A DNA stretch of 64,000 nucleotides from Patescibacteria group bacterium (GCA_041660885.1 JBAZVM010000007.1:17896-81895), one strand, 5' to 3'; positions 5,563 through 27,914 are shown, counted from the first letter of the stretch. The notes: generated by a model from the sequence alone, not told the origin. Program-made: numbers and translations.

Positions 5563-5582
5563 AAGAGTATAAAAGAGGAAAT

Positions 5583-8561: not shown

Positions 8562-8595
8562 GTTCCCCAAGCGCAGCATGCTGTCGCATCCGCAC

Positions 8596-9636: not shown

Positions 9637-9673
9637 GGTGCACCTCCAATGTTGTGGGTAGCGAGTTGAGACA

Positions 9674-9835: not shown

Positions 9836-10030
9836 GATGCCCTCCTTCTTTTTGCGCTACTTACTCCTTGTTGATTTCCTGTTTCTTCGTCTTGGGAACG
9901 AACTTTGAAACAGGAAGTGGGTTGAATTGCCTCCCAAGGGATAGGGAGGGCTTCTCTGTGAACTATTTAAATGTACTATCCCACAGTGAAAAAGCGGTAT
10001 TGAAGCACTACAAAAATTTCTTTGTATAAC

Positions 10031-10053
10031 AAAAAAGCCCGCCTGAACGGGCT
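10031..10053 (-). terminator. intrinsic terminator-like hairpin directly after a promoter
   Basis: Minus strand AGCCCG-ttcagg-CGGGCT followed by TTTTTTG. It starts 2 nt after the putative -10 at 10055-10060. Confidence 0.45.
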
Positions 10054-10054
10054 C

Positions 10055-10083
10055 ACCATAACGATATTTTTTATTTTTGTCAA
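10055..10083 (-). promoter_or_regulatory. sigma70-like promoter facing island 1
   Basis: Minus strand TTGACA (10083-10078), 17-nt spacer, TATGGT (10060-10055). Confidence 0.35.
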
Positions 10084-10113
10084 GTCCTATCCCCTAAATA
10101 TGTGAATAACAAT

Positions 10114-10140
10114 AAAAGACGCCATTTTTCGCGTCTTTTT
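10114..10140. terminator. bidirectional terminator-like hairpin after island 2 gene
   Basis: AAAAGACGC-cattttt c-GCGTCTTTT, with an A-run and a T-run on either side. Confidence 0.55.
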
Positions 10141-10232
10141 ATCATATATGAAAATATTTTATTTATGTATGCGACGGAGGGCTCCAGCTGTGCTGTTGTG
10201 AAACCCTCCGTCTGTGCGCCGCGCATGGCTTC

Positions 10233-10436
10233 CTACCTCCCGAAGAGGTAGCTGAGGCTCGACCCGCCCAACGCGAGCCCGAGAACCACGTTGCCGATGC
10301 TCAGCACGATGTGTCCCTCCGCCATGAGGAATCCCCCAGCGAAGACCGATCCGATGCCACCGATCACACCGAGAATCGCTCCCACGATGGCGATCAGGAC
10401 CATCATCAACCCCTTTGTCGACATTTGGAACGTCAA
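10233..10436 (-). CDS. small glycine-zipper membrane protein (GC-rich island 2)
   Basis: 67 aa: MTFQMSTKGLMMVLIAIVGAILGVIGGIGSVFAGGFL...LGLALGG. Two predicted TM helices rich in GxxxG. TTG start with SD GGAGGTG 4 nt upstream; an alternative ATG is at 10424. Confidence 0.55.
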   Translation of the reverse strand: MTFQMSTKGLMMVLIAIVGAILGVIGGIGSVFAGGFLMAEGHIVLSIGNVVLGLALGGSSLSYLFGR

Positions 10437-10495
10437 GAAACACCTCCGGTTGAAACCGGGGGCATCATATCAATAAATTTGATTTTGTCAAGACT

Positions 10496-12234: not shown

Positions 12235-12326
12235 TTTAGAGACGGCGCTAAACAAAAAGCCAGCCTTTTTGGGCTAACTTTAGCCAAAAAACTTATGTGG
12301 ATAACTTATTTAGCGACGGCGCTAAA
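12235..12326 (+). promoter_or_regulatory. pair of 7-4-7 palindromes TTTAG(A/C)G-ACGG-CGCTAAA (locus 1)
   Basis: Sites at 12235-12252 (TTTAGAGACGGCGCTAAA) and 12309-12326 (TTTAGCGACGGCGCTAAA, perfect 7-bp arms), 74 bp apart. The second overlaps the last codons of 12306..12665. Confidence 0.6.
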
Positions 12327-12665
12327 CTTATGTAATTTCTCTACTTTATTATCTAAACGCTGTAACCAATCAACCACAAAAACATGATCTTCATCAATTT
12401 TATTTACTCTTATTGCTATTGCATCGACAGCGCTCACTAAGTCATTAAACTCACTTCGATAAACCATATTCTGTTTAATTTCTGAAATTTCTTCAGTATT
12501 TTTTAATACAGTATTAATTAAACGATCGAACTTTTTATCATGATCTCCTAACTTAATATTAATCTGGTCGAACTTTTTATCATGTTCTTCTAGTTTACTG
12601 TTGATCAGATCGAACTTTTTATCATGTTCGTCCAGCTTTAATAATATTTTATCAATTTTTGTCAT
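12306..12665 (-). CDS. coiled-coil protein with three 14-aa tandem repeats (EHDKKFDxINxKLx)
   Basis: I place the start at the internal Met MTKIDKILLKLDEHDKKF (ATG 12665-12663). The track N-terminal extension runs through the ssb terminator hairpin. A 42-nt DNA period is visible at 12526/12568/12610. Confidence 0.5.
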   Translation of the reverse strand: MTKIDKILLKLDEHDKKFDLINSKLEEHDKKFDQINIKLGDHDKKFDRLINTVLKNTEEISEIKQNMVYRSEFNDLVSAVDAIAIRVNKIDEDHVFVVDWLQRLDNKVEKLHKFSAVAK

Positions 12666-12722
12666 AGGTCTATATATTTTATATTTAAAGATTATTGCTG
12701 TCAAAGATAGGAATTTATCCCG

Positions 12723-12754
12723 GAATGTCCCCCGCATTAATGCGGGGGACATTC
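12723..12754. terminator. perfect 16+16 palindrome after ssb
   Basis: GAATGTCCCCCGCATT|AATGCGGGGGACATTC, 7 nt downstream of the ssb stop. No clear U-run. Confidence 0.5.
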
Positions 12755-14042: not shown

Positions 14043-14999
14043 TTAAAATTCTCCGGCTAAATTCTGCCCCATTAATTTTTTTACCTTCTTAATATCGCTG
14101 GTTTGCCCCAAAACCCAAACAAACTTGGCTACGGCTGTTTCATAATTGATTCCGGAGCAAATAAAAACATTATCCGATTTTATTTCCGTGCCCTGGGAAT
14201 AAACGCATACGGGAATATGCTTCGGTAAATTGTAGCGGCTGGGGTAAAGTTGTTCTTGAAATCCACGAATAAAAATACCGGCGTAATCTTTATTAGCCAA
14301 ATCAGCTTCGCTTTCCGGGTGTACATCCAATATTTTAACGCGGCTGATAAATTTACCGTTGAATTCCGGATCATTCTCATGCCTTTTTTTCACGTAATTA
14401 TTTAGGTGAATGCCAAATTGGATCCTGGCTAAAGAATGCTTTTGAAAAAAAGAAAGATATTTTCCCGGATCATCCCAATTGAATTTAGCTTGCGTAGCGC
14501 GCACCAAATGATTACCAATAACCACGCCCACTTCGGAATTATCCATGGTGGCGATCTGCACGGCGTTGATGAGCCCGGATTTAATAGCTAAAGTTTCGAA
14601 TTCTCCGAAACTAATGGGCTTTTTTTTCTGTTGAAAAAAAATTTGCTCGTTTTCCTCAGGCAAGGCCGGGCCAGTAAATATAATGGGCTTGCCCGTGTTC
14701 TGCGCCATAAAAGCCAGCAAAGAACTGGTGTAAACGATATTATCTATGCTATGCGTTATTACAAAGCCGTCGTATTTTTTATAATTATCTTTGATAATAG
14801 TTGTTAGCCTGCCAGCCAAATCCCAAGGCACATCCGCACCCGCGCCATGCCATACAAAATACGGTTCCACTTGCGCCATCATTTGCAGCTCAAAGGAATT
14901 GGAAATCCACTTTTTTAACATGGCCAAATTAAAATCCGGCCCAAAGGTGGTGCCTCCGGCGTAGAGCAAACAGATTTTTTTCTGGCTTAAAGATTGCAT
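14043..14999 (-). CDS. L-asparaginase/GatD-like domain protein
   Basis: 318 aa. KICLLYAGGTTFG resembles the asparaginase GGT(I/L)xG threonine motif, and ITHSIDNIVYTSSLLAF resembles HGTDTMEETA. Confidence 0.5.
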   Translation of the reverse strand: MQSLSQKKICLLYAGGTTFGPDFNLAMLKKWISNSFELQMMAQVEPYFVWHGAGADVPWDLAGRLTTIIKDNYKKYDGFVITHSIDNIVYTSSLLAFMAQNTGKPIIFTGPALPEENEQIFFQQKKKPISFGEFETLAIKSGLINAVQIATMDNSEVGVVIGNHLVRATQAKFNWDDPGKYLSFFQKHSLARIQFGIHLNNYVKKRHENDPEFNGKFISRVKILDVHPESEADLANKDYAGIFIRGFQEQLYPSRYNLPKHIPVCVYSQGTEIKSDNVFICSGINYETAVAKFVWVLGQTSDIKKVKKLMGQNLAGEF

Positions 15000-15230: not shown

Positions 15231-15917
15231 ATGTTGCGCTCGTTCTTCGACACCATCATCTGCCTCGCGCTCCTCAGCGCCTGCGCCCCGACCGACACCG
15301 ACAACCAGGAGCCTCTCGAGGACACCGACAACAACGAGTACACCTACACCAACGAGCCGGCCATCGAGTCCTACCCGCTCAACCTCTCGGACAACGACTA
15401 CGGCCCCGCCCTCGACGAGGAGGATCTCTACCTCATCGAGCAGGTCTACGGCGACATGTCCAAGGAGGAGTGGGAGATGCTCCTCGACGACCTCGCAGAG
15501 CTGACCGAGGAAGAGCTGCAGGAGTGGCTGGCCATCCTCGCCGAGGATCTCAGCGAAAACTCCACCATGAAAATTGCCTCCTGCTCCGGCTACTACGGCA
15601 GCCGCATCGGCTACGGCTGGTTCCCCTACTCGAGCACCTCCACCTACCGCAACCTCTGGACCACCAACTGCTACTTCCGCGGCGCGCAGTGCGGCAAGGA
15701 CTACATCGCAAGCTTCTGGATGGGCCCGGACTACCGTGGCGACCAGAGCGACCTCGTGGCTTATGCCTCAACCACCTCGGCACGGCTCTATCTGTTCTAC
15801 AGAGGAGGATACTCGGGGGAAATCTATCAGGGCGGATCGTACTACAACTTTTACGCCTGCTGGCCATGGGAAATTGGCGGTCTCATCGACAAGGCCCAGC
15901 TCAAGCAGATCTACTGA
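15231..15917 (+). CDS. lipoprotein, acidic linker + Cys/Tyr/Gly-rich C-terminal domain (GC-rich island 3)
   Basis: 228 aa with lipobox LLSAC. Codons end almost exclusively in C/G. SD-like AAGGAAA lies 8 nt upstream. Overlapping alternate-frame track ORFs are rejected. Confidence 0.7.
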   Translation: MLRSFFDTIICLALLSACAPTDTDNQEPLEDTDNNEYTYTNEPAIESYPLNLSDNDYGPALDEEDLYLIEQVYGDMSKEEWEMLLDDLAELTEEELQEWLAILAEDLSENSTMKIASCSGYYGSRIGYGWFPYSSTSTYRNLWTTNCYFRGAQCGKDYIASFWMGPDYRGDQSDLVAYASTTSARLYLFYRGGYSGEIYQGGSYYNFYACWPWEIGGLIDKAQLKQIY

Positions 15918-15937: not shown

Positions 15938-15991
15938 AAACGCAGGGGTAAAGAGAAGTGCTTAAACTTTACTTCTTTGCCTCTGCGTTCC
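15938..15991 (+). terminator. long bulged hairpin with conserved loop, copy A
   Basis: AAACGCAGGGGTAAAGAGAAGTGCTTAAACTTTACTTCTTTGCCTCTGCGTTCC. Near-identical to copy B (21924-21978) and related to copy C (23008-23056). Confidence 0.55.
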
Positions 15992-16012
15992 AATCATTTG
16001 ATAATAGATAGA

Positions 16013-16059
16013 TTGACATTATTTATAATTTTGTTAGCATACCTATGTATTCTAGGTAT
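16013..16059 (+). promoter_or_regulatory. promoter + putative PadR operator (copy 1)
   Basis: TTGACA (16013-18), 16 nt, TAGCAT (16035-40), overlapped by the inverted repeat ATACCTA-n7-TAGGTAT (16039-16059). About 50 nt match the padR upstream region with 4 differences. Confidence 0.55.
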
Positions 16060-16080
16060 TAATAAATAATTAAAATTATT

Positions 16081-17025
16081 ATGCACAAAGAAATTAAAAA
16101 AGATGAACGGAAGGATGGAAGCATAAAAAAAATATTTAAAATTTTATTAAATATTTTTTCCATTGCCCTCATTTTTTATTGTTTATTGGCAACAATTTTA
16201 ATCTGGTTGCTTGATAAACAAATTATCTCTTCAGTAATTAACATTACTAAAACATCCCCTGCTTTTGTCATTATTATGCCAAAAATGCTAATTGAATTGT
16301 TATTTTTAATTATACCGCTAACTATCTTTCAATTATTTGATATTGTTATATGGTTCTGGTTTATAGGCATAATTCTGTTTATTATACTTGGTTTAACCTG
16401 CTTTTCTTTCATTAAAACCATTATAAAGAATAAAAAAGAGAATAAATTAACATTCATCAATTTTCCTTGGATTAAATTAACTTTGGCGGTCTGGTTAATG
16501 AGCATTTTATTTTTTGGGTCAACGGGAACACCATCTCTAAGATGGAGCCAGCCGGTTATAAAAGTCTCTCGAAATATAGAAGTAACTCAATTTGGTCCTA
16601 TATATAATTTTGTTAAATATACTAATCGTGATGACGGCTTTTTCAAATATTCAATCAATATAAATATAGATAATAAATTTAGTGTGCAGCAGATAAAAAA
16701 TTCCAATAAAATTTCTTTATATAATATTATTAATGGATCAAAACTTAAGAAAAATAATAATTCTACGGCAATAGCAGAATATTCGGGAGATGAAACATTG
16801 CCAGCCGACATTAAGTGCTATGCCAATAATAATACTCAAAATAATTATATATACCTAAAAAACAGATGCAATGAATTATGGTATAAAGAAAAACTAATAT
16901 TTAAAACTAAAGAATGGCCTGTTTGGGTAAAACGAGTCGAAATAAATAATGATAATACCAAGCTTTTAATTCATATTTATCCCGGATATGTTACTCCCGA
17001 ATCTGTATTTTTAGTCACACTATAA
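16081..17025 (+). CDS. membrane protein (N-terminal TM bundle + Asn-rich extracytoplasmic domain)
   Basis: 314 aa, very AT-rich, with several predicted TM helices. Confidence 0.55.
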   Translation: MHKEIKKDERKDGSIKKIFKILLNIFSIALIFYCLLATILIWLLDKQIISSVINITKTSPAFVIIMPKMLIELLFLIIPLTIFQLFDIVIWFWFIGIILFIILGLTCFSFIKTIIKNKKENKLTFINFPWIKLTLAVWLMSILFFGSTGTPSLRWSQPVIKVSRNIEVTQFGPIYNFVKYTNRDDGFFKYSININIDNKFSVQQIKNSNKISLYNIINGSKLKKNNNSTAIAEYSGDETLPADIKCYANNNTQNNYIYLKNRCNELWYKEKLIFKTKEWPVWVKRVEINNDNTKLLIHIYPGYVTPESVFLVTL

Positions 17026-17032
17026 TTGTAAT

Positions 17033-17368
17033 ATGAAAATTATCGTTCTTAAATCAATTATTACAATCATTTGTTCTTTTTTTAGCGGGTTAATAATGTT
17101 TATATTACCAAGCCACTTTATACCCATATCTCCGGATAAATGGTACGACGATCCTTTTATATTCATACTATTTGGCATGATACTTGGGGCATTAATAGGA
17201 TGGTGGCTGAGTGATAAAAATATTTTGCGAGCTGCTATTGGAATTTTTTTGTATTTGATTGTCATATTTCTATCTTTTAATACTTTTACCAGTACCTTAG
17301 GATATGTATTATCTTTGCTTGCTTTAATTTCAATCGCGGTTTTTGTAGGTATTGCCCAGAAAAAATAA
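17033..17368 (+). CDS. small membrane protein
   Basis: 111 aa, about 4 TM helices, 7 nt after the previous stop. Confidence 0.5.
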   Translation: MKIIVLKSIITIICSFFSGLIMFILPSHFIPISPDKWYDDPFIFILFGMILGALIGWWLSDKNILRAAIGIFLYLIVIFLSFNTFTSTLGYVLSLLALISIAVFVGIAQKK

Positions 17369-17375
17369 TATTAAT

Positions 17376-17422
17376 TTGACATAATTTTTATTTTTGCTAA
17401 CATACCTATGTATTCTAGGTAT
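17376..17422 (+). promoter_or_regulatory. promoter + putative PadR operator (copy 2, autoregulatory)
   Basis: TTGACA (17376-81), 16 nt, TAACAT (17398-403), and the inverted repeat ATACCTA-n7-TAGGTAT (17402-17422). Confidence 0.55.
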
Positions 17423-17444
17423 TATCAAATAATTAAGCAAAAAT

Positions 17445-17762
17445 ATGCTAAATAAAGAACTGCTAAAAGGCTTCTCCCCCATTATCATCCTCTCCGTTTT
17501 AAGCGATGAAGCAAAATACGGGTATCAAATTGTGAAAGACATTAAAAAGAAAAGCGACAAATCATTAAACATCGCCGAAGGTACGCTTTACCCGCTTTTA
17601 CACAAGTTGGAAAAAGAAAAAATGCTTTACTCTTTTTGGCAAGAAGCCGGTGGCAGGAAAAGAAAATATTACGCGCTTTCGGCCAAGGGAAAAAAAGCAT
17701 TAAAAACGCAAAAGAACGACTGGCAATTATTTTTAAAAACCATGCATCAGGTTATCGATTAA
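17445..17762 (+). CDS. PadR family transcriptional regulator
   Basis: 105 aa. ILSVLSDEAKYGYQIVKDIKKKS...IAEGTLYPLLHKLEKEKML...RKYYALSAKGKKAL is the typical PadR winged helix. Confidence 0.85.
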   Translation: MLNKELLKGFSPIIILSVLSDEAKYGYQIVKDIKKKSDKSLNIAEGTLYPLLHKLEKEKMLYSFWQEAGGRKRKYYALSAKGKKALKTQKNDWQLFLKTMHQVID

Positions 17763-17767
17763 TTTTT

Positions 17768-18946
17768 ATGTTTTTATATAATCTTTGGCAAAAAACATTC
17801 TTGCCGGAAATAGATGATGAACTGGACGCTCATTTAAGCGAAGCCATGGATTTTTATTTAGAGCAAGGAGTTGATAAAAAAGAAGCCCATAAAAAAGCCC
17901 TGGCAGATTTCGGGGATCGTTCTTTGGTTATCAAGCAATTATTAAAAGAAAATATTTCATCTTATTATAATTTCTTGGCAACGATTTCTTTTTTATTGTG
18001 CGGCGTTATATTTATTGCCGGTTTTATTTTTTCTCATTCGGATTTTCTCATTAACGCCTTTTTTCTAAAATTTATATATATTTGGGCCATTTTCGCTTTA
18101 ATGCTGATCGGCCTGTATTATGTTAAATTTATTAATAATTTTTGGGGCGCTTTTAAAAATAAAACTTTGCTGGCGATTTTTTCTTTTATATTTATTTATA
18201 ACTTTATTATTGTTGTTTTTTATGATATTGATGCCATAGAAATAATAATGCAAAACACCCTTCTTCTAACGCCATTGTTAGCGTTGGCTTTCATCGGTAA
18301 AAAATATTCAAAACAATATCTATTCAGATTAGAAAAAATTATCTTTGTTATCATTACTCTTTGCACGGTTGCTCAAAAATCCGTTCTTAGCAGCTTGGGC
18401 AGTATTAAATGTTTATTCATAACGCCGGATAAATTATCTTCCGGCGCTTCTTCTTTTTCTTCATGCCAGCAATTATCTTTTTTCAGTTGGAATCTTTTGC
18501 CGTTTTGGTTAATCGCAGGGGCTTCTATAGGAATGCTTCTATTTTTTCTTTTTAATTATTTAAAAAGCAAACAAAACATAATAAACAAAATCTTTATCGG
18601 CTTAACCAGCACAGCCATGATTGTCTGCCCCATATTTCTTTTTGACAGCAATAACTACCATAAAGTGGAAATCATTAATTGGCAGCCGGAGATTATTCAA
18701 GCTTACCGCGATATCTTAGGCCGAGATCCGGAAGAGAAAGACATGGCTTTTTACGCTGAACATGAGACTTATTTATACATGGACAGAATCAAAGACACTT
18801 TATATCAATCTCAAGAAAGAGAAATAAAAATTAATCTGATTTATCAAAAAATATTAAAAAGATCGCCCAGCGAAGAGGAGCTAAGCAGATATATAGAAAA
18901 TAGAATGAGTATTAAAGAAATTAGAAACGAACTGCGAAATTTATGA
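17768..18946 (+). CDS. PadR-associated membrane protein (N-terminal permease-prefix-like helix, multi-TM core, C-terminal DUF4214-like repeats)
   Basis: I place the start at ATG 17768 (MFLYNLWQKTFLPEIDDELDAHLSEAMDFY). The track start 17636 overlaps padR in another frame. The C-terminus IIQAYRDILGRDPEEKDMAFY / IYQKILKRSPSEEELSRY resembles DUF4214. Confidence 0.6.
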   Translation: MFLYNLWQKTFLPEIDDELDAHLSEAMDFYLEQGVDKKEAHKKALADFGDRSLVIKQLLKENISSYYNFLATISFLLCGVIFIAGFIFSHSDFLINAFFLKFIYIWAIFALMLIGLYYVKFINNFWGAFKNKTLLAIFSFIFIYNFIIVVFYDIDAIEIIMQNTLLLTPLLALAFIGKKYSKQYLFRLEKIIFVIITLCTVAQKSVLSSLGSIKCLFITPDKLSSGASSFSSCQQLSFFSWNLLPFWLIAGASIGMLLFFLFNYLKSKQNIINKIFIGLTSTAMIVCPIFLFDSNNYHKVEIINWQPEIIQAYRDILGRDPEEKDMAFYAEHETYLYMDRIKDTLYQSQEREIKINLIYQKILKRSPSEEELSRYIENRMSIKEIRNELRNL

Positions 18947-20088
18947 AGTATGCTAAATATATTATTACATGTTCTTTCCTGATAATCTGCTTGCCTTTTT
19001 TATCCAAAGCTGAAGAGACTAATGCTATTGTCTCCTTTATCCCCCAAGAAATCGACGACCAAATAATTTACCCCTCCCGTTTTGTCATTCCTGAAGTAAA
19101 AACTTTTCATTACTTATCTTACGACTCTGTTAAGATTAATCCCGCTTGGGCGAATAAAGGTTATTATTTTGAAATATGGAATGATCAGAATCGTCCCCTG
19201 CCGGATTATAAAGCGAGAAAGCTGGAAACCGATATCATTGATTTAAGCCGCGTTGATGCCACGCAGACAAAAGCCATCCGCATAGTGATATTCATTCCGG
19301 ATAATAAAGAAGCGCTGGCTCCGGGCGATTTTGCTTTTAGCTGGCAATCGGGTTTTGATTGGCGCTTGTTGGTTTTTACAATATTCACCAGCCTACTGAT
19401 AATATTAATAATAATTTTTTCTATTTATTATCGCCTTAAGCCTAAAGAGATTTTAAAGCTCACAAAAAAATTGAGTTTCAGAGGCAATATAGAAACCGAT
19501 TCTAAAAAGCAAATAATTTTATTGATTTGGATAATAATAATTTTTGCGGGCATTTATGGGGTGGCTTTGGGTTATTTTATGGGAGGAATACAAATACTCT
19601 ATGTTCTGATCAAACTGCCGCTTCTATTCATTGGATCTTTATTCATTTCCTTTATTACCGCTTATGTTTTGAATTTATTATTGGGAGGAAAAGAAAAAGC
19701 AACGGCGGTATTTATCAATGCTTTAAGCGCCTTGGCCATTACTTCATTGATTCTCGCTTCGTTGGCGCCGGTATTATGGTTTATGATAATTATCCCAAAT
19801 AAGCACGACATTATAGTTTTTATTAATGTTTTATTTTTCGGCATTGCCGGTTTGATTGGAGCTTTATTTTTCTATAAACAAAGCCGTAATAAAAATATAC
19901 TGGGTTTCCTGCTGTGGCTGTTTTTATATGGATTAGTGGCTCTGCAATTATCTTGGTTGCTGCGCCCTTGGGTGGGATTAATGGAAAATGTGGATATAGC
20001 CATTCCCTTTTTGCGCCTTTACGATGGTAATGTGTTTGTGGAAATATTCAATATAATAACCCGCGCGGGAAGCGGGCACGCAATTTAA
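18943..20088 (+). CDS. membrane protein: signal peptide + ~120-aa outer domain + 6-7 TM C-terminal domain
   Basis: 381 aa with ATGA overlap to the upstream gene. The C-terminal TM domain looks paralogous to 20104..20703. Confidence 0.6.
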   Translation: MKYAKYIITCSFLIICLPFLSKAEETNAIVSFIPQEIDDQIIYPSRFVIPEVKTFHYLSYDSVKINPAWANKGYYFEIWNDQNRPLPDYKARKLETDIIDLSRVDATQTKAIRIVIFIPDNKEALAPGDFAFSWQSGFDWRLLVFTIFTSLLIILIIIFSIYYRLKPKEILKLTKKLSFRGNIETDSKKQIILLIWIIIIFAGIYGVALGYFMGGIQILYVLIKLPLLFIGSLFISFITAYVLNLLLGGKEKATAVFINALSALAITSLILASLAPVLWFMIIIPNKHDIIVFINVLFFGIAGLIGALFFYKQSRNKNILGFLLWLFLYGLVALQLSWLLRPWVGLMENVDIAIPFLRLYDGNVFVEIFNIITRAGSGHAI

Positions 20089-20103
20089 TTAATTAATATA
20101 TTT

Positions 20104-20703
20104 ATGAAAACATCAATCATTAAAACATTACTAAAAAACAAACAAGAAATCTACGAGTACTTGTTTCACGAAGAACGCTGGAATAAACTGACAATAAAAT
20201 TATTGCTTATCAGTTTATTTGGCATTGCCTTCTATGGCTTGGTTATGGGAACTTATGTGGATGAGTGGCAACATTGGTTTAAGATCAGTTATAAAGCCAT
20301 TCTATTAATATACGGTTCCATTATTTTATGCGTACCCGCCTTGTATGTTTTTACCAGTATTGCCGGCTCTAATCATACTTTAAAACAAATTGTTTTTTTG
20401 CTTTTAGGCGCCTTAGCCACAGTAGGAATTGTTTTCACTGGTTTTTTACCTATAGTTTGGTTCTTCACTTTTTGTACCAAAGATATTGTTTTTATTCGCG
20501 TAATGCACGGAGCAATAATTTTCTTAAGCTTAAGCTTCGGTTTATTTTATTTTCAGCAAGGCATGAATTATCAACCAGATAAAATAAAAAAACACGGCTA
20601 TTTTGGTGTTTTATTTTTATGGATGTTAGTTTTCTCAGCGGTTCTTTTGCAAATGGCGATAAAATTATCACCTTGGTTTAACAGCTTCAAAGGTTGGTGG
20701 TAA
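20104..20703 (+). CDS. multi-pass membrane protein, paralogous to the C-terminal domain of 18943..20088
   Basis: 199 aa. Shared pattern F-G-x-YG...YV...AL...P(I/V)(V/L)WF. Confidence 0.55.
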   Translation: MKTSIIKTLLKNKQEIYEYLFHEERWNKLTIKLLLISLFGIAFYGLVMGTYVDEWQHWFKISYKAILLIYGSIILCVPALYVFTSIAGSNHTLKQIVFLLLGALATVGIVFTGFLPIVWFFTFCTKDIVFIRVMHGAIIFLSLSFGLFYFQQGMNYQPDKIKKHGYFGVLFLWMLVFSAVLLQMAIKLSPWFNSFKGWW

Positions 20704-20720
20704 AATTTTGTCCACAAGAT

Positions 20721-20800
20721 TATTGCGACGGCGCTAAAAAATATTAGTTAATAATTATGGATAAACATGAAATAATCTACTTTTTAGCGACGGCTCTGAA
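20721..20800 (+). promoter_or_regulatory. pair of 7-4-7 palindromes (locus 3), second abuts the -35 of the cassette promoter
   Basis: Sites at 20721-20738 (TATTGCGACGGCGCTAAA) and 20783-20800 (TTTAGCGACGGCTCTGAA), 62 bp apart. Confidence 0.55.
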
Positions 20801-20802
20801 TT

Positions 20803-20831
20803 TTGCGCAATAATATTTTCTAATTTAAAAT
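20803..20831 (+). promoter_or_regulatory. sigma70-like promoter of GC-rich cassette B
   Basis: TTGCGC (20803-08), 17-nt spacer, TAAAAT (20826-31). Followed by a GC-rich leader of about 165 nt. Confidence 0.35.
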
Positions 20832-21002
20832 ATAAGCAACGAATCGACAATCTAAAAGGAAAGCTCGAGGGAAAATCGGGCAAGATCCCTACCATCTTGT
20901 TTACCCGATTCTCCCTGGGGCAACCTGGGATGCTTCTGCTCCACTCTCCGGCTGTTCGGAGGGAATGGGTATTAGCATCTAGTTCATTGGAGCGAACGAA
21001 CC

Positions 21003-21899
21003 TTGAAAACGTACATCGCCATCCTCCTGAGCCTCGCGCTCACGGGCTGCGTGCCCGAGAGCACCGACGACAACACCGAGCTCGCGTTCGACACGGCCTA
21101 CGACAACACCGAGAGCGTCGCCGACGGCAACTACACCGTCACGATCTCGGAAGACGAGGCCAAGCGCAGCGCCATGTTCGGCCTCGACGAGGACATCTAC
21201 TCAGCCACTTCTACCATCGTGGGCCCCCTCCAGTACCGCAACGAGTGGATTCCCGCGTACGAGGTCACGGTCAACGGTGGAGACCACATCATCCTCCGCT
21301 ACATCGATGGGAACGACGGCACCCTGCTCCAGGACATCGACGCCTACCACGAGATCCCGACCATGAACGAGGTCGATCTGCCGGAAGACGTCATGGCGTC
21401 CTACTACACGTCCTGCCCGTCCGGCTGGCCCCTGTGCATCGCCAACCCGTCGTCCATCACCTTCTACAGCCAGAACGACCCGAGCTGGAAGTATGACCTC
21501 CTCGGCAACAGCAGCACTTCCACCATCGGCGGATACGGCTGCCTGCTCTCGAGCTACGCCATGGAGATCTGCAAGAACGGGCACGGGTGCTACACGCCCA
21601 AGCAGCTGAACGCCTACAAGACCTGCTTCTCCGGCGATCTCGTGATCAACTCCTGCATCGCCAGCAAGGTCGGTGCCTCCTACTCCACCATCAGCCTGGC
21701 CTCGCTCTGGGGCAAGATCGCCTCCGGTGTTCCCGTGGTGGTCTACGGCAAGTCCTCCTGCATGGGCGGCAGCTACCACGCCCAGATGATCTGGGGCCAC
21801 GACGGCTCCCGCTACTGGACCAAGGACCCCTGGTACGACTGGACGAACCAGGACCAGGCCATGTGCGTGTCGTCGCCGAGCTATCGCGTCATCCACTAG
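21003..21899 (+). CDS. lipoprotein with PepSY-like domain and C-terminal papain-fold (C39-like/CHAP-like) cysteine peptidase domain (GC-rich island 4)
   Basis: 298 aa, TTG start, lipobox LALTGC. PepSY-like segment AYEVTVNGGDHIILRYIDGNDGTLL. Motif YSQNDPSWKY...IGGYGCLLSSYAM (candidate Cys) and later GGSYHAQMIWGHDG (candidate His). Codons end almost exclusively in C/G. Confidence 0.65.
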   Translation: MKTYIAILLSLALTGCVPESTDDNTELAFDTAYDNTESVADGNYTVTISEDEAKRSAMFGLDEDIYSATSTIVGPLQYRNEWIPAYEVTVNGGDHIILRYIDGNDGTLLQDIDAYHEIPTMNEVDLPEDVMASYYTSCPSGWPLCIANPSSITFYSQNDPSWKYDLLGNSSTSTIGGYGCLLSSYAMEICKNGHGCYTPKQLNAYKTCFSGDLVINSCIASKVGASYSTISLASLWGKIASGVPVVVYGKSSCMGGSYHAQMIWGHDGSRYWTKDPWYDWTNQDQAMCVSSPSYRVIH

Positions 21900-21923
21900 A
21901 GATGCACGATATGTTCGCTCACA

Positions 21924-21978
21924 AAACGCAGGGGCAAAGGAAAGTGCTTAAAACTTTACTCCTTTGCCTCTGCGTTCC
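21924..21978 (+). terminator. long bulged hairpin with conserved loop, copy B
   Basis: AAACGCAGGGGCAAAGGAAAGTGCTTAAAACTTTACTCCTTTGCCTCTGCGTTCC. Confidence 0.55.
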
Positions 21979-22008
21979 GACTCTATTTATCAATAATTAA
22001 ATAAAGCT

Positions 22009-22998
22009 ATGAAAAAAATTGTATTGTCAGCGATGTTTTTATCGCTTATGATCATGCCTTTTTCTACGTTTGCCAGCAAGCAAGTTACGCAAAGTTTCAA
22101 ACACCCATTTACTTACCTTCCAATGAAAACAGGGGCCATGATTTTTACGCATGAACAAAAAAATTTCTACTACTCGCAGACTCCTGAAATCGCAGTAGAT
22201 TGGAAAAAATATAAGTTAAGCTCCACCTTTGATTCAATTCAGGGAGAAGCCGTTCATTTCAAAAACTATACTTATGCTATCGGTGGAGACATATATAACA
22301 ACGGTTATTCGCAAGATGAAACATTCGATAGAATTATTAGATTTAAAGATGAAAACCCGAAAAAAATAGAAACAGTAATAACCATAACGAATGAAAGTGG
22401 AGAGTATATTACTCCATTAATATATAATTTGGTTTCTTTTGAAGATAAACTATATACCTATACGGCTTTGGAAGAATTGCTTCAATCGTCCGATGGCACT
22501 GATTGGACTACCGTAGAAACAACCGGGCTGCCGAATAATAAAACTTTGGAACAGTTTATCGCCACTACCGATACATTATATGCCAGAATTGATAATACGA
22601 TTTATTACACAAAAAATGGCGCGGATTGGCATAAATTAAATAGACAATTTTCCGGTGTTACAAACATTATGGTTTATAAAGACAAATTGTTTGTTAATAA
22701 CAGAAACGAAAACAACGAATCTGATTTATTTAAATTAAAAAGCAACCATTTTATCAAAATTTGTTCAAATAAAAAGGGCTTTATTGATGCCACTAACTCT
22801 GCGTTGTTTTTAATAACCAACACTCTAACGGACGAAGAAATTAGCTATAAAATCTATAAGAGTACGGATGGTGAAAAATTCACTAAAGTGGCTAGTGGCG
22901 AAAATGCTATAACTTTTGATCCCATGGAAGTTAATGGGGAGACTCTTTTTACAATTAGTGGTTCTGAAAATACCAATACTTATTTATTAAGGATTTAA
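22009..22998 (+). CDS. secreted protein with BNR/Asp-box-like motifs (beta-propeller-like)
   Basis: 329 aa with a signal peptide. Motifs SSDGTDW, KNGADW and STDGEKF. AT-rich, native-like composition. Confidence 0.55.
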   Translation: MKKIVLSAMFLSLMIMPFSTFASKQVTQSFKHPFTYLPMKTGAMIFTHEQKNFYYSQTPEIAVDWKKYKLSSTFDSIQGEAVHFKNYTYAIGGDIYNNGYSQDETFDRIIRFKDENPKKIETVITITNESGEYITPLIYNLVSFEDKLYTYTALEELLQSSDGTDWTTVETTGLPNNKTLEQFIATTDTLYARIDNTIYYTKNGADWHKLNRQFSGVTNIMVYKDKLFVNNRNENNESDLFKLKSNHFIKICSNKKGFIDATNSALFLITNTLTDEEISYKIYKSTDGEKFTKVASGENAITFDPMEVNGETLFTISGSENTNTYLLRI

Positions 22999-23007
22999 AA
23001 TTTAAAT

Positions 23008-23056
23008 AAAAAAGAGGCAACGGGAAGTGCTTAAACTTTACTCCATTGCCTCTTTT
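23008..23056. terminator. hairpin copy C, bidirectional terminator between convergent genes
   Basis: AAAAAGAGGCAACGGGAAGTGCTTAAACTTTACTCCATTGCCTCTTTTT. It has the same loop as copies A and B and is flanked by an A-run and a T-run. Confidence 0.65.
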
Positions 23057-23071
23057 TCGTATTCTAGCAAA

Positions 23072-24367
23072 TCAATTATTTTTTGCCCAGCTCTTCTCTT
23101 GGCGCACTAATAAATCTTCCGCCAATTCGGGATTAGCCATAATTTCTTTGGTAATTATCTCCATACGCGCGCTTTGCGAGCCTTTAATGAGAATGATATC
23201 GCCGCGGTGGATCTCATCCTGCACCGGACGGCTGGCTTCATTGGAAGTGGTATAGGAAAGAACCGTCCCCGCTGTCATGTTCTTTTCTTTGGCTGCCTCG
23301 GCCATATTTAGAGCTTTATCTCCTACGGTAATCAATATATCCACACCGCTCTCCGCTATGAAACGGCCGAGTTCTCGATGCGCTTTTTTTGAATTATCCC
23401 CCAGCTCTTCCATGTTTCCCAAACACGCAATCTTGCGGCCGGTTACTTGTACCTTAGATAAAACCTCTAAAGCTTTTTCACAGGCTAAAGGTGAAGAATT
23501 ATAACTATCGTCTATTATTATAGTATCTTTAATTCCTTTTAATAAATTCATCCGGCCTTTAGGCGGCTTATAATTTTTTAGCGCCGCGGAAATCTCCACC
23601 AGATTCATTTTTAAAATTAATCCGCAGGCGATGGCGCAAAGAGCCGCGTAAACTTGGGGCTCGCCCAGCGCATTCATAATTTTAAACGGAACCGTATGGC
23701 CTTGGTAATTTACTTTAAAACTTATGCCCGCGCTTTCCTCGGCCATGGCTCTTTCCAAATCCAAAGTATAATTAATATCCGAAACTCTGATGAGCGCTTT
23801 TTCGTTTTGCCCAATGGTATATAAAGAAGCTTTGGTTTTTTCAACTAACAGTTTTAATGAGGCATCATCCGTATTAATAACGGCAAAATCATTACTCTTT
23901 AGATGGGTGATGATATTGGCTTTTTCCCTGATCAAATGTTCTACGTTTTTAAAGAACTCCAAATGCACGGGATTCTCGCCGACAGCCGTAATAATACCGA
24001 TATGGCAAGGAGCCAGCTTGATTAAATATTTTATATCTCCGGGTTTGTCCGCTCCCATTTCCAGAACAATAACTTTCGGATAAGGCCAATAAATGGCTAC
24101 AACCAAGGCTTTAAAAAATACCGCTAACCATAAAAAAATATTCCTACCGCCGGCTTTAGCGCCGATAATGGTAAGCGGAACGCCTATTTCATTATTATAG
24201 TTTTTAATATTGCGGCGCACTTTAAATTTTTCTTTAAGCACGGCGTAAATAGCTTCTTTGGTGGAAGTTTTACCCACGCTGCCGGTAACGCCAATAATCT
24301 GCGGCTTATAACGCCAGAGAATTATTTTAGCGAGATAGTATAGTATTATTTCTAATGCTTTCTTCAT
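23072..24367 (-). CDS. murF: UDP-N-acetylmuramoyl-tripeptide--D-alanyl-D-alanine ligase
   Basis: 431 aa. P-loop GVTGSVGKTSTKE, Mur ligase layout, dcw cluster context. Confidence 0.85.
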   Translation of the reverse strand: MKKALEIILYYLAKIILWRYKPQIIGVTGSVGKTSTKEAIYAVLKEKFKVRRNIKNYNNEIGVPLTIIGAKAGGRNIFLWLAVFFKALVVAIYWPYPKVIVLEMGADKPGDIKYLIKLAPCHIGIITAVGENPVHLEFFKNVEHLIREKANIITHLKSNDFAVINTDDASLKLLVEKTKASLYTIGQNEKALIRVSDINYTLDLERAMAEESAGISFKVNYQGHTVPFKIMNALGEPQVYAALCAIACGLILKMNLVEISAALKNYKPPKGRMNLLKGIKDTIIIDDSYNSSPLACEKALEVLSKVQVTGRKIACLGNMEELGDNSKKAHRELGRFIAESGVDILITVGDKALNMAEAAKEKNMTAGTVLSYTTSNEASRPVQDEIHRGDIILIKGSQSARMEIITKEIMANPELAEDLLVRQEKSWAKNN

Positions 24368-24368
24368 A

Positions 24369-26168
24369 TTATTCCCTATCGGGCGGTATTTGATAATAAT
24401 CTAAAATATATTCAGCGATATCGTGCCATATGGGCGCGACAGAACCTTCAGCCCAAGAAACATCTTGCGGTTCATCCATTTTTACCAGCATAATAAATTG
24501 CGGATTGGATATGGGGGCATAGCCCACGAAAGTATCCTTATGCCGAGAACCGGAATAACCCGAGCCGTCTTCCAAGGCAATCTGCGCCGTGCCTGTTTTT
24601 CCACCTATATAATAGCCCGGTATAGCCGCCATATAGGAGTGCCCGTTATCCACAACGTTGACCAGCATAGCAGATATAGTGGAAGCTGTCTGCTGGGAAA
24701 AAACTTGGCGCACAACAGTCGGTTCCGTTACTTCTTTATAGCCATTTGCTTTAACTTTTTCCGCAATAATATAAGGCTTCATTAATTTTCCGCCGTTCGC
24801 TAAGGTATTATACGCTGTAATAAGTTGAATAGGCGTAACTGTTATACCTTGGCCGTAAGAGGATGTGGCAGAATAAATATCTTTTAGCTGTTCCAGCGAG
24901 GAAATGTTGCCGGAATTTTCTCCGGCTAATTCTATCCCCGTTTCTTCGCCAAAACCCAAATTTTTTACATATTGATACCAAGCTTCATTGCCAATTTGCT
25001 GCACCGCGTAGATAGAACCTGTATTCAATGATTTCGCCAGTACATATTTCATATCCACCACGCCATGCGCGCCTTTTTCCGCGGTGTCGGAATTGCGTAT
25101 GGTGTAATTAGCGATTTTCACATAACCTTTGTCTTCATAGGTGGAATAAGGAGTTATTTTTCCCATATCTATGGCCGCGCCCAAAGAAAAAGATTTAAAA
25201 ACAGAACCGGATTCGTATTGATCCGATACCGCGCTGTCCATAAATACGCTTACTGATTCCACATCGGAATAATTATTCGGATCAAACGACGGAAAATTGC
25301 ATAAAGCGAGAATAGCGCCGGTTGTAGGCTGCATAATAATAACAGTTCCTTGTTTGGCTCCATGTTTCTCTACGGCCTGCTGCAATTTATCGCAAGCGTA
25401 AAATTGAATATTTTTATCAATGGTCAAATACAAATCATCTCCGTCTTGCGCTTCTTCCGTAATTTTATCGCCAATGGCCAAGAAACGGCCGGAAGCATCC
25501 TTCTCGCTTAGCAAGTATCCCGGCGTTCCTTTCAACTCATCTTCGAAATATCCTTCCAGCCCATACTGCCCTACCCTGGCATCGTCTTTCACTCCCAAGA
25601 AACCCGTAAGATGCGCGGTGTACTCCGCGTTCGGATAATAGCGCCAAGCTTCGCTGGTAAAATCAACCCCTTCTATTTTCAAATCCTCTATGGCTTTTTT
25701 CTCGTAATCGGAAACGCGGCGCTTTAAAACTTCATAGGTGTCTTTTCTGTCGTTATCTAGCATTTTCGGTTCAAGCTTTTTATTTAATTCATCCTGGCTC
25801 ATGCCAAGCAAAGGCGCTAAATCCTTTACCGCTTGTTCGCTGTTTTCTATCAGCCACGGATTGGCATAGACAACGGCTAAATCTTGGTTGGCCGCTATTT
25901 TGTAGGTACTTTCCGCGCTCAACGGATCGCGCACGTAAATTTCTCCACGATTGGGAAATAAATCTTTATATAAATCATGATTTTGCGAAGCCAAAGCCGC
26001 GTAAAAATTATGCTGCCAAACTTGCACATAAGCCAGACGCATAATAATAATGCCGCCGACGATAAAAAAAATAGCGCAGAGCACTTTCAAACGATCAGCC
26101 GCGGCCGGCGCTTTTTTTATTTTATGAGAAGAATAATGAAATCTATTTTTAAAAAATTTTTTGATCAT
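24369..26168 (-). CDS. ftsI: penicillin-binding protein (FtsI/PBP2-type transpeptidase)
   Basis: 599 aa with an N-terminal TM anchor. SxxK (SGSVFK), SxN (SLN) and KTGTA motifs. Confidence 0.85.
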   Translation of the reverse strand: MIKKFFKNRFHYSSHKIKKAPAAADRLKVLCAIFFIVGGIIIMRLAYVQVWQHNFYAALASQNHDLYKDLFPNRGEIYVRDPLSAESTYKIAANQDLAVVYANPWLIENSEQAVKDLAPLLGMSQDELNKKLEPKMLDNDRKDTYEVLKRRVSDYEKKAIEDLKIEGVDFTSEAWRYYPNAEYTAHLTGFLGVKDDARVGQYGLEGYFEDELKGTPGYLLSEKDASGRFLAIGDKITEEAQDGDDLYLTIDKNIQFYACDKLQQAVEKHGAKQGTVIIMQPTTGAILALCNFPSFDPNNYSDVESVSVFMDSAVSDQYESGSVFKSFSLGAAIDMGKITPYSTYEDKGYVKIANYTIRNSDTAEKGAHGVVDMKYVLAKSLNTGSIYAVQQIGNEAWYQYVKNLGFGEETGIELAGENSGNISSLEQLKDIYSATSSYGQGITVTPIQLITAYNTLANGGKLMKPYIIAEKVKANGYKEVTEPTVVRQVFSQQTASTISAMLVNVVDNGHSYMAAIPGYYIGGKTGTAQIALEDGSGYSGSRHKDTFVGYAPISNPQFIMLVKMDEPQDVSWAEGSVAPIWHDIAEYILDYYQIPPDRE

Positions 26169-26530
26169 TCACTTAAAGCCACGGAAGGTTTGCCAGAGAG
26201 GTATTCCGCATCTGTTACCGGTTCCAGAGTAAAATTTTCGCTGACTTGCTTTATATTGTCCATTGATTGCAGGCTTTGCACGTGTAAATCTAATTGCTTA
26301 TTTTGGCTTGAAACCGCGGCCAGCTGATCCTGCAATTGATCCAAGGCAAAACCATCGGCCGAAGTATCATTCACCAAGCCGATATAAGAAACGAATAACG
26401 CGATAATAATAGCGACAAAAGCGATATTTAAAACAAAATAATTCAAAGAAATCCTATTATACCAATGCTGGGCCTTTGGTGCGGCTGTTTTTTGGCAATT
26501 CAGTTTAGAAAACCGGAAAAATTTAGACAT
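26165..26530 (-). CDS. ftsL: FtsL-like cell division membrane protein
   Basis: 121 aa with a single TM helix and a coiled coil. Located between rsmH and ftsI, with a 4-nt overlap with ftsI. Confidence 0.55.
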   Translation of the reverse strand: MSKFFRFSKLNCQKTAAPKAQHWYNRISLNYFVLNIAFVAIIIALFVSYIGLVNDTSADGFALDQLQDQLAAVSSQNKQLDLHVQSLQSMDNIKQVSENFTLEPVTDAEYLSGKPSVALSE

Positions 26531-26536
26531 CTTATT

Positions 26537-27478
26537 TTAAATTTTAGCTATTACTCTTAATTTAGCGCTGCGGGATGGAGGATTATCCTCTATTTCCTTA
26601 GGGCTGGGAGTAACAGGTTTCTTGGTTAATAATTTAATTTGCTTCTTGTGGTGGCAAACGCACATGGGAACATCGGGCGAACACAGGCAGTCTTTGCTTT
26701 CCTGCCGGAAAAAATTCTTTACGATTCTATCTTCTAACGAGTGGAAAGAAATTATCGCCAACCGACCCCCTGGTTTTAAAAGCCTTAAGGCGGAAGGCAA
26801 GAACTGTTGCAGGTTATAAAGTTCGTCATTTACGGCTATGCGCAAGGCTTGCCAAGTGCGAGTGGCCATGTGAATTTTCTTCGGCTTCCTCTGCCCTTGG
26901 TAAGCCTCGGCCACGATTTTTAAAAGATCCGATACTTTTTCTATTTTTTTTGTTTTTCTATATAAACAGACACGACGAGAGATTTTTTTAGCCAGCGGTT
27001 CTTCTCCATACTCTTTCAATAAACTGCATATTTCTTCTTCGCGGTAAGTATTCAGAATGTCCGCCGCTGTTAGCGGACCATCCTCATTCATTCTTAAATC
27101 TAAGAGCTCATCAGGTTTTTGAAATGAGAAACCGCGTCCTGCGTCTCGGATTTCATAACTAGATACCCCAAGGTCAAGTAGAATAGCAGATACTTTTGAT
27201 AAAAATTCCAGTTGCTTCCCATAAAATTCGATCTTGGCAAAACTATCGTTAATTAATTTAAACTGGTTGCTGACTAGGCTTAGCCTCTCCTGGCTGGCCT
27301 TGATGGCCGCTTTGTCTAAGTCTAGCCCCAGTAAAAAACCATTCGGTTTTATTTTTTTTAATATCTCCCGAGAATGCCCTGCTCCGCCAATGGTGCCATC
27401 TATTGCTATATCTCCCGGTTGAACATTTAAATAATCTAGAACTTCCTTTAAAAGAACAGGGGTGTGCTGGAATAGCAT
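26537..27478 (-). CDS. rsmH: 16S rRNA (cytosine1402-N4)-methyltransferase
   Basis: 313 aa. HTPVLLKEVLDYL and DGTIGGAGHS motifs. Confidence 0.9.
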   Translation of the reverse strand: MLFQHTPVLLKEVLDYLNVQPGDIAIDGTIGGAGHSREILKKIKPNGFLLGLDLDKAAIKASQERLSLVSNQFKLINDSFAKIEFYGKQLEFLSKVSAILLDLGVSSYEIRDAGRGFSFQKPDELLDLRMNEDGPLTAADILNTYREEEICSLLKEYGEEPLAKKISRRVCLYRKTKKIEKVSDLLKIVAEAYQGQRKPKKIHMATRTWQALRIAVNDELYNLQQFLPSALRLLKPGGRLAIISFHSLEDRIVKNFFRQESKDCLCSPDVPMCVCHHKKQIKLLTKKPVTPSPKEIEDNPPSRSAKLRVIAKI

Positions 27479-27482
27479 GGCT

Positions 27483-27914
27483 TTAAACGCCTATCTCCCC
27501 CAATGCTTCGGCAATATCGCTGCTATCTTTTTCCGTACCCTTTTTATAAGCCTCCCATTTCGTTTCATCCCATATTTCCAGACGATTATACAAACCGGCG
27601 ATAACGGCTTTCTTTTTTATGGCCGCGAAATGGCGCAAATATTCCGGCAGAATGATCCTTCCTTGGCCGTCCAGCTCTACATCCATAGCGCCGGCTAGCA
27701 TTAAGCGGGAAAAAGCGCGGGTATTGGCTTTGGAAATAGGCAAAGTGGCCAGTTTATCCGCTAATTTCTGCCATTCTGTTTTGGTATATAAAAATAAGCA
27801 GTTATCAAGCCCTCGGGTAACTACTGCTCCTTTGGTGAAATCTTTTCTAAACTTAATCGGTACCGCTAAGCGGCCTTTTTCATCTAGATTATGGTTGTAT
27901 TCGCCAATAAACAT
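27483..27914 (-). CDS. mraZ: transcriptional regulator MraZ
   Basis: 143 aa. MFIGEYNHNLDEKGRLAVPIKFR and a second DGQGRIILP repeat. Confidence 0.9.
   Translation of the reverse strand: MFIGEYNHNLDEKGRLAVPIKFRKDFTKGAVVTRGLDNCLFLYTKTEWQKLADKLATLPISKANTRAFSRLMLAGAMDVELDGQGRIILPEYLRHFAAIKKKAVIAGLYNRLEIWDETKWEAYKKGTEKDSSDIAEALGEIGV

Follow-up and report, generated by a model that had tools for sequence, protein, structure and literature searches.

Intrinsic terminators do not require a conserved sequence at the tip of their hairpin. Terminator hairpins without a U-tract, called 'I-shaped', have been described in Actinobacteria, where their activity is disputed. Variable surface lipoprotein families with conserved 5′ regions are also known, as are 'minimal mobile element' islands, which lie between conserved flanking genes and are exchanged in naturally competent bacteria. 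REP and BIME elements are repeated imperfect palindromes that lie 3′ of genes or between cistrons and have no U-tract; they block 3′→5′ exonucleases and give rise to differential expression within operons. In enterobacteria these elements reportedly act as 3′ stabilisers of mRNA, for example at malE-malF, as Newbury et al. are said to have found in 1987. Our literature search found no paper that dealt with Patescibacteria together with terminators or with the G+C content at third codon positions (GC3). Here we describe three long hairpins, A, B and C, from a stretch of 64,000 nt of a Patescibacteria group bacterium (GCA_041660885.1, JBAZVM010000007.1:17896-81895), referred to as the window, in which each of them follows a gene for a secreted protein. 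The genome was searched over the window and about 3.6 kb of further flank (about 68 kb together), and a close relative over the 16 kb of Logan contig L009. With moderate confidence, we consider the hairpins to be paralogous, lineage-specific elements of 3′ untranslated regions (3′-UTRs) that end the mRNAs of secreted proteins, as terminators or as barriers to exonucleases, within a recombining island.

An earlier reading, made from the sequence alone and called here the sequence-only reading, had reported three long hairpins with a common core of about 19 nt, and these were confirmed. A covariance model built from five copies and run on the window without filters scored A at 81.3, B at 87 and C at 73.3 bits, while the next unrelated match in the window reached 15.6 bits. 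The three sites were the only ones found by the model in the 64 kb, all inside 7.1 kb, and the additional flank held no further copy by the same model. The exact 18-mer AAGTGCTTAAACTTTACT was common to A and C, with a chance expectation of 0.09 matches per window when up to three mismatches were allowed, and the core of B was that of A and C with one extra A. Outer arms (AAACGCAGGGG and CCTCTGCGTTCC) were identical in A and B, neither of which has a U-run, and the lower stems differed yet remained paired (AAAGA with TCTTT in A, AAAGG with CCTTT in B), all as described in the sequence-only reading.

Folded on the plus strand, A, B and C reached -28.5, -31.8 and -21.1 kcal/mol, with z values against shuffles of -6.3, -7.2 and -5.4. 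By stability, B was 7th and A 14th among all 60-nt segments of the window on both strands, and the G+C content of the hairpins was about 43-48%. Minimum-energy and consensus folds had a tip helix of 4-5 bp (AAGU/ACUU), a loop of 6-7 nt and, in the 3′ arm, a bulge of 3 nt (ACU). The purine bulge of 2 nt that had been claimed for the 5′ arm of all three copies belongs to the other of two tip registers; both registers fit the six known full copies equally well, but the minimum-energy fold has the ACU bulge.

Further copies came from the close relative. Contig L009 was syntenic with the window, its housekeeping proteins being 78-96% identical and its two lipoproteins 63% and 69% identical, and it held A′ and B′, the orthologues of hairpins A and B. 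A fourth copy, called D′, scored 47.9 bits and followed a 125-aa lipoprotein gene that is absent from the window. Of C′ only the 5′ half was present, a deletion having fused the half-hairpin to the end of murF; since the 3′ half has been deleted in this relative, hairpin C, at least, is dispensable. Altogether, seven copies were known from the two genomes, six of them full (A, B, C, A′, B′ and D′). The tips in L009 were CAGTACTTACAACTTTACT in A′, AAGTGCTTACAACTTTATT in B′ and AAGTGCTTAACTTTACT in D′. The loop, taken to be invariant in the sequence-only reading, was so within the genome of the window but not in L009, as it measured 5-7 nt and contained substitutions when both genomes were compared.

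All seven copies began 7-24 nt past a stop codon, on the same strand as the upstream gene, and all seven followed genes with a signal peptide. The sequence-only reading had suggested, as one possible role, the localisation of mRNAs for exported proteins, but the association carries little weight, because nearly every gene of the island encodes a secreted or membrane-bound protein. In four more distant relatives from the candidate phyla radiation (CPR; L013, L014, L018 and L142), where the protein related to the C39-like product of the gene before B was 46-55% identical, the orthologous high-GC genes also ended in long hairpins, 9-33 nt past the stop codon. The sequences of these hairpins were mostly different from those of the family and one had a U-run, though a GCAGRGG/CCYCTGC base recurred among them. 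The orthologue of A in L014 carried the tip AAAGT-CTTATA-ACTTT on a wholly different stem. That different hairpins occupy the same gene-end position in distant relatives fits a positional, structural role. The nearest further relative, found through the asparaginase neighbour and 53% identical, lacked the island and had no copies by the covariance model.

The structural covariation that the sequence-only reading had asked for in a larger alignment was found. In an alignment of the six full copies, both partners had changed in 7 of the approximately 16 pairs of the outer stem, and 95% of cells were paired. Only 0-1 of 500 shuffles reached the observed values for pairing, for pairs changed on both sides and for covariation, and pairing fell to 43-56% when the 3′ partners were slid. 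The compensatory changes, together with the excess of pairing over shuffles, therefore place the hairpin structure under selection. The tip (19-20 nt), in which there was no compensatory change, was 75-100% identical in every pair of copies, whereas the stems fell to 53-59% between diverged paralogues: C and A agreed at 19/19 tip and 19/32 stem positions, D′ and A at 17/19 and 18/32. An extra constraint on the sequence of the tip can fairly be inferred, since a plain terminator would show the opposite pattern, with a tip less conserved than its stem. In this respect the proposal that the conserved loop exceeds the needs of a plain terminator was upheld, though for the tip within its paralogues and not as an invariant loop across genomes.

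Between the two genomes, A and A′ were about 83% and B and B′ about 92% identical, compared with 76-80% in the surrounding blocks, and the AT-rich flanks did not align. Some characters were shared by the copies of one genome. At column 10 of the stem A and B have G, giving a G·U pair, and A′ and B′ have A, giving an A-U pair; the sequence TTACAAC was common to A′ and B′. This pattern of sharing points to gene conversion or homogenisation within each genome.

As to function, we infer that the active form is RNA and not DNA, and that it terminates or stabilises transcripts. Owing to G·U pairs, the sense strand folded better than the antisense strand in 5 of the 6 full copies (sense and antisense, in kcal/mol: A, -28.4 and -17.3; B, -31.8 and -27.5; B′, -32.3 and -27.8; D′, -27.9 and -23.4), and C folded on both strands (-21.1 kcal/mol on the plus strand, -23.7 on the other). 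A stable, G+C-containing stem-loop is present directly downstream of the gene on the transcribed strand, as in intrinsic terminators. Hairpin C in addition has a U-tract by sequence, with six A and five T flanking its stem, which agrees with its earlier description as resembling a bidirectional terminator. Other terminator-like hairpins with U-runs are present in the genome, which suggests the usual terminator mechanism for C; it probably serves the DUF6242 gene and murF, which converge on it, as an intrinsic terminator in both directions. Downstream of hairpin A, at 16013, comes a strong promoter-like site with the elements TTGACA, 16 nt and TG-TAGCAT, and the position of A ahead of this site indicates that A ends a transcription unit. 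A promoter inside the hairpin itself was also considered, as the 3′ arm contains TTGCCT, followed in A by GATAAT 17 nt downstream. We treated this as coincidence, because a convincing -10 box at that spacing is lacking in B and B′, and a stronger promoter follows A.

Three observations weigh against the hairpins being transcript ends of a plain kind. First, a U-tract (at least 5 U in about 8 nt) was missing right after the stem in A, B, A′, B′ and D′, the post-stem sequence being CCAAUCAUUUG in A and CCGACUCUAUUU in B, so that these five would terminate poorly by the canonical mechanism. Second, a terminator scan of the window listed none of A, B and C. Third, a plain terminator or stabiliser leaves unexplained why the tip is so much more alike than the stem. 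We suggest that A and B are more likely to be weak U-less terminators, or barriers to 3′→5′ exonucleases. The 3′ end of B lies 30 nt upstream of the next start codon, and B could act as an intercistronic stabiliser ahead of the second gene of a pair that is conserved across the CPR relatives. If the transcript-end reading is correct, each copy would form the last part of the transcript of a secreted-protein gene and would mark or protect the 3′ end of that mRNA, and the likeness among copies would stem from duplication and gene conversion inside the recombining island.

Conservation of the tip might also mean that the hairpin is chiefly a docking site, in which the tip (AAGUGCUUA, 0-2 nt, AACUUUACU) is recognised by its sequence by a partner specific to the lineage, be it an RNA-binding protein, an RNase or an RNA. 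The tip would then consist of a short helix, a loop of 5-7 nt and a bulge, the covarying stem would only present it, and the partner would co-regulate the mRNAs of the island in their stability, translation or localisation. The freely covarying stem beneath a tip that is far better conserved among diverged paralogues would suit such a role, as would the signal peptide encoded by every host gene and the tip kept on a different stem in the L014 orthologue of A. However, the tip of A′ has three differences from that of A, among them a one-base C insertion, the bulge of B′ is altered, half of C′ has been lost in L009, and most hairpins at the same position in the more distant relatives have unrelated tips. 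Neither a complementary partner sequence in the window nor a candidate binding protein was identified, and short-tract gene conversion could also keep the tips alike. We therefore regard a docking site as unlikely, although the best placed of the alternatives and one that might also add to a transcript-end role. Equally tentative is the idea that the tip is an 'address tag' on the 3′-UTRs of an island of fast-evolving lipoprotein genes of horizontal origin, which a putative RNA-binding protein or nuclease would read to co-regulate their mRNAs, or that it is, together with the 5′ leader described below, the conserved end of exchangeable gene modules.

Table 1. Hairpins, host genes and adjoining features in the window, with coordinates counted from its first nucleotide
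Feature	Coordinates	Strand	Description
Hairpin A	15938-15991	+	21-bp bulged stem-loop starting 20 nt past the stop codon; tip 15956-15973; without U-run
Hairpin B	21924-21978	+	21-bp bulged stem-loop starting 24 nt past the stop codon; tip 21942-21960; without U-run
Hairpin C	23008-23057	.	Tip and inner stem as in A and B; stem base replaced by AAAAAA/TTTTT; tip 23025-23042
Gene before hairpin A	15231-15917	+	Predicted lipoprotein of 228 aa (MLRSFF...LLSAC); GC3 0.88; without Pfam match
Gene before hairpin B	21003-21899	+	Lipoprotein of 298 aa (TTG start, ...LALTGC); Peptidase_C39_2-related; GC3 0.94
Gene before hairpin C	22009-22998	+	Secreted protein of 329 aa; weak DUF6242 match; AT-rich, GC3 0.32
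Conserved structured 5′ leader	20866-21002	+	Precedes the gene before B; also found before B′ and D′ in L009
murF	23072-24367	-	Convergent with 22009-22998 (+); hairpin C lies between them

The island that contains the hairpins is bounded by a gene with an asparaginase domain (14043-14999, minus strand) and by the dcw cluster from murF to mraZ (23072-27914, minus strand). Its lipoprotein genes are built from modules. The 5′ leader contains GGGAAAATCGGGCAAGATCCCTACCATCTTGTTTACCCGATTCTCCCTGGGGCAACCTGGG; about 70-140 nt of it are conserved, and its L009 counterparts are located at 3185-3290 and 5300-5447. By BLAST, the leader region 20848-20929 was 87.8% identical to 3175-3256 of L009. The leader folded at -63.9 kcal/mol (z -5.0), had no Rfam match and may be an undescribed cis-regulatory RNA. 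One of its hairpins has a GNRA loop, and CCTGGG-GCAA-CCTGGG in the window corresponds, by eye, to CCTGAG-GTAA-CTCAGG at 5912-5927 of L014, which suggests covariation of this hairpin between the two. The D′ unit combined a leader of the B type, a start and signal peptide of the A type (MLRLFF...LLSAC), an unrelated gene body and a hairpin of the family. The 5′ leader, the signal-peptide segment and the 3′ hairpin would thus be exchanged among otherwise unrelated lipoprotein genes of high GC3.

The two genomes differed in the content of the island, although the flanking proteins were 78-96% identical. Nucleotide homology between the window and L009 stopped at 15988, at the 3′ end of the A/A′ stem. 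After A′, L009 had an extra 188-aa gene and the D′ unit, which closed with hairpin D′ and about 140 nt more. A second difference (16709-20867) was not bounded by a hairpin. A block of five open reading frames (ORFs; 17033-20703) in the window, including a padR gene, was absent from L009. In L009, a C-terminal domain was duplicated ahead of each leader (2616-3182 and 3892-5301, in proteins of 188 and 469 aa); the stretch 16081-17025 of the window also belongs to this comparison of the two islands. The window also contained a 61-nt repeat, at 16013-16073 and 17376-17436, whose copies were 89% identical and carried a palindrome, ATACCTA-N7-TAGGTAT, together with a strong promoter-like site made up of TTGACA, 16 nt and a TG-extended -10. 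The copies lie upstream of the gene at 16081 and of the padR-family gene 17445-17762; the repeat probably serves the PadR regulator encoded there as its operator.

The sequence-only reading had also considered a recombination site marking the ends of cassettes. The hairpins would in that case act in DNA, either as sites of an unrecognised site-specific or single-strand recombinase, similar to attC, or as short homology arms, which with the shared leader would let homologous recombination exchange gene bodies once DNA has been taken up. The differing content of the island agrees with this, as do the break in homology exactly at the 3′ end of A/A′, the extra segment of L009 running from A′ to just past D′, the mosaic of A and B modules in D′, and the bulged, imperfect palindromes, which recall attC and in A, B and B′ have AAC...GTT at their base. 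We nonetheless think it improbable, more so than a docking site. No integrase, transposase, HUH-family enzyme (which nicks single-stranded DNA) or other recombinase was found among the 29 window proteins covered by the scan, nor did the Pfam annotation precomputed for the fetched flanks list any. The core sites of attC were lacking, and conservation was high at the tip and low at the base, opposite to attC. Of the breaks between the two genomes, the second is located away from the hairpins, several genes with a promoter of their own and no site lie between A and B, arms of 50 nt are short for efficient homologous exchange, and the G·U asymmetry favours a role in RNA. The suggestion was therefore not borne out by these tests.

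A selfish palindromic repeat of the REP type, or resembling a miniature inverted-repeat transposable element (MITE), could have been inserted after genes, with any effect on mRNA being secondary. The same palindrome of about 50 nt is indeed found in several intergenic sites after unrelated genes, and at least one other hairpin repeat family is present here (CCCCTCTCC...GGAGAGGGG, five sites). The distribution of the copies makes this very unlikely, as only three are present in the 64 kb, clustered within 7.1 kb, with none in the extra flank or in the 53%-identity relative, all have the same orientation with respect to the gene before them, and they are orthologously stable between the two genomes. 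No target-site duplication was detected at A (gatcaacgag / aatcatttg) or B (ttcgctcaca / gactctatt), and neither a RAYT nor another transposase was found.

Searches beyond these genomes gave similar results. The exact tip pattern (AAGTGCTTAAA, 0-1 nt, CTTTACTYC), which includes the first two bases of the 3′ stem and is over-specific, had two matches in the genome_contigs collection and five in metagenome_contigs, none with flanking complementarity, and these matches are chance. In viral contigs a 16-nt tip pattern had more than 120 matches, all of which scored 20.5 bits or less with the covariance model, compared with 48-87 bits for true copies; there is thus no phage link for the family. Two further candidates were rejected. 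A DNA uptake sequence placed in terminators, as in Neisseria, would be expected frequently across the genome, and the motif occurred only three times, in one cluster. Diversity-generating retroelements are common in CPR, and their target hairpins were considered as well, but no template and variable repeat pair was present among the repeats and no reverse transcriptase among the scanned proteins; the idea is also disfavoured because the high G+C content spans whole genes and not a variable region.

Of the genes that precede the hairpins, all three encode signal peptides as read from sequence, with the lipoboxes LSAC and LTGC in the first two and MKKIVLSAMFLSLMIMPFSTFA in the third. The sequence-only reading was right about secretion but had described the genes as consecutive, which they are not: between hairpin A and the gene preceding B there are at least six ORFs of at least 100 aa (16081-20703), and two strong promoter-like sites are located between A and B. 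The 228-aa protein matched three proteins, including itself, at E ≤ 0.001; it was 57% (BLASTP) or 63% (global alignment) identical to its L009 orthologue and had a 48% homologue in a high-GC genome. The 298-aa protein had 20 homologues, several with PF13529, and a Myxococcota protein at 51%. The 329-aa gene is located directly downstream of the C39-like gene also in L009, L013, L014 and L018, and in L142 the gene at that position has a similar signal peptide and no recorded Pfam match. In the Logan assembly of the locus, a 231-aa ORF (21201-21896, minus strand) was called on the wrong strand inside the 298-aa gene; high-GC islands here yield long spurious ORFs in several frames.

High GC3 distinguished the lipoprotein genes of the island. 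It was 0.74-0.94 in 15231-15917 and 21003-21899 of the window and in 1827-2510, 3291-3668 and 5448-6368 of L009, compared with about 0.25-0.55 in other genes of the genome. Both close relatives have kept it, even though the lipoproteins are 63-69% identical and the neighbouring proteins 78-96%. In the distant CPR relatives, the GC3 of the C39-like gene was 0.59-0.80 against 0.27-0.40 in its neighbours. Homologues of the high-GC3 genes were found in Myxococcota and in another high-GC genome, and the high GC3 would reflect either an old transfer, with GC3 somehow maintained since, or repeated transfers. Import of the hairpin along with the genes was rejected: the DNA downstream of the Myxococcota and other high-GC homologues was unrelated and scored 11.9 bits or less with the model, and a hairpin absent from those loci was therefore not imported with the genes. 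Another block of high G+C content (0.57-0.59) was located at 8560-10440. It contained a minus-strand gene for 346 aa (GC3 0.70, weak NAD-binding matches) and small ORFs, and had terminator-like sites consisting of a hairpin and a T-run at 8530-8570 and 10105-10148, without a hairpin of the family.

Other repeats were detected in the window. A second family of hairpin repeats, CCCCTCTCC-N4-5-GGAGAGGGG followed by (T)CAGGGG(G)AGAGG, is located on the minus strand at 48915-48957, 50001-50043, 53898-53940, 5521-5580 and 50141-50200, ahead of dnaJ, a 340-aa gene, hrcA and pgk. This hairpin may sequester the Shine-Dalgarno-like GGAGAGG, in which case it could control translation or serve as an RNA thermometer. 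The intergenic motif G[AC]GACGGCGCTA had 13 matches with two or fewer mismatches, against 3.4 expected. Its sites included 12239, 12313, 15038, 15114, 20725 and 20787 on the plus strand, 5722 and 5795 in L014, 4840 and 4905 in L018, and about 150 in L142, so that it is kept in distant relatives, where it has the opposite arrangement. The motif was often paired, at 6-10 nt, with a DnaA-box-like TT(A/G)TCCACA(A/G), for example at 20706-20736 (TTTTGTCCACAAGATTATTGCGACGGCGCTA), and could be a regulator or promoter element of the clade. Finally, three tandem repeats of 42 nt (12526-12651) were present in a 148-aa ORF (12306-12752, minus strand), encoding ...EHDKKFD... units.

If the hairpins are transcript ends, as we favour, they constitute a small, undescribed family of 3′-UTR terminator or stabiliser hairpins of local interest, useful for annotation and as an example of CPR genomes homogenising non-coding modules within variable islands. 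They would matter more if a specific factor reads the tip, the host genes being likely host-facing, with secreted lipoproteins that include a C39-like peptidase. To our knowledge, almost nothing is known of post-transcriptional control in Patescibacteria, and the address-tag or module-end reading, if true, would mean an undescribed post-transcriptional or cassette-exchange system in this group. The more unusual observation is the context, in which lipoprotein genes with a GC3 of 0.86-0.94 are framed by a shared 5′ leader and a 3′ hairpin.

In Rfam 15 only three tRNAs in the window reached their gathering score, and the hairpins had no match at that level; at E ≤ 5 they matched only models of plant microRNA precursors, at 22-25 bits against cut-offs of 66-96. 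The HrcA operator CIRCE (TTAGCACTC-N9-GAGTGCTAA, three mismatches allowed) was not present at A, B or C, the AAGTGCTTAA of the tip resembling only a single half-site. The search found a single perfect, canonical CIRCE, at 53859-53885, which is located just upstream of hrcA on the minus strand and runs into the 5′ end of that ORF as listed (53137-53865, GTG start).

The integron attC sites are likewise imperfect, bulged gene-end palindromes that lie in one orientation in a variable region, and they share AAC...GTT at the base with A, B and B′. However, of the attC cores R″ (RYYYAAC) and R′ (GTTRRRY) only the AAC and GTT agree with GAGAAAC in A and B and with GTTCCAA (A) and GTTCCGA (B), and even these are absent from A′ (GTG), C and D′. 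In attC sites the base, with its extrahelical bases, is conserved and the terminal structure varies, while here the tip is the conserved part and the stem the variable one. Arrays of attC consist mostly of single-gene cassettes that lack promoters, next to an intI tyrosine recombinase; here the sites are separated by multi-gene stretches with promoters, and no intI or attI was found.

REP and BIME elements resemble A and B in being repeated gene-end palindromes without a U-tract, and B precedes the next gene of a conserved pair as an intercistronic element would. REPs differ in occurring as hundreds of dispersed, RAYT-linked copies with conserved stems and a 5′ GTAG, whereas here there are three clustered copies with variable stems and a conserved tip; the window contained no Y1 (RAYT) transposase, and no GTAG was present at the stem base of A, B or C. 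The I-shaped terminators are similar long hairpins without a U-run after genes, and the host genes here look derived from high-GC genomes, but these hairpins are only 43-48% G+C and are absent from the loci of the high-GC homologues. Variable lipoprotein and minimal mobile element islands are similar in that gene bodies which are unrelated or evolve fast carry common modules, both non-coding and for signal peptides, that content differs between close relatives and that mosaics such as D′ exist, and differ in that phase-variation repeats and invertible elements were not seen here; exchange by transformation in this island is a conjecture. With intrinsic terminators the hairpins share a stable stem-loop a few nucleotides past the stop codon on the sense strand and, in C, the order of A-run, stem and T-run between convergent genes. 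They differ from these in the missing U-tract of A and B, in stems that are about 21 bp long and bulged, and in a tip conserved across paralogues. The hairpins match no Rfam family or described repeat; by kind they are gene-end hairpins, and the evidence requires nothing beyond known mechanisms.

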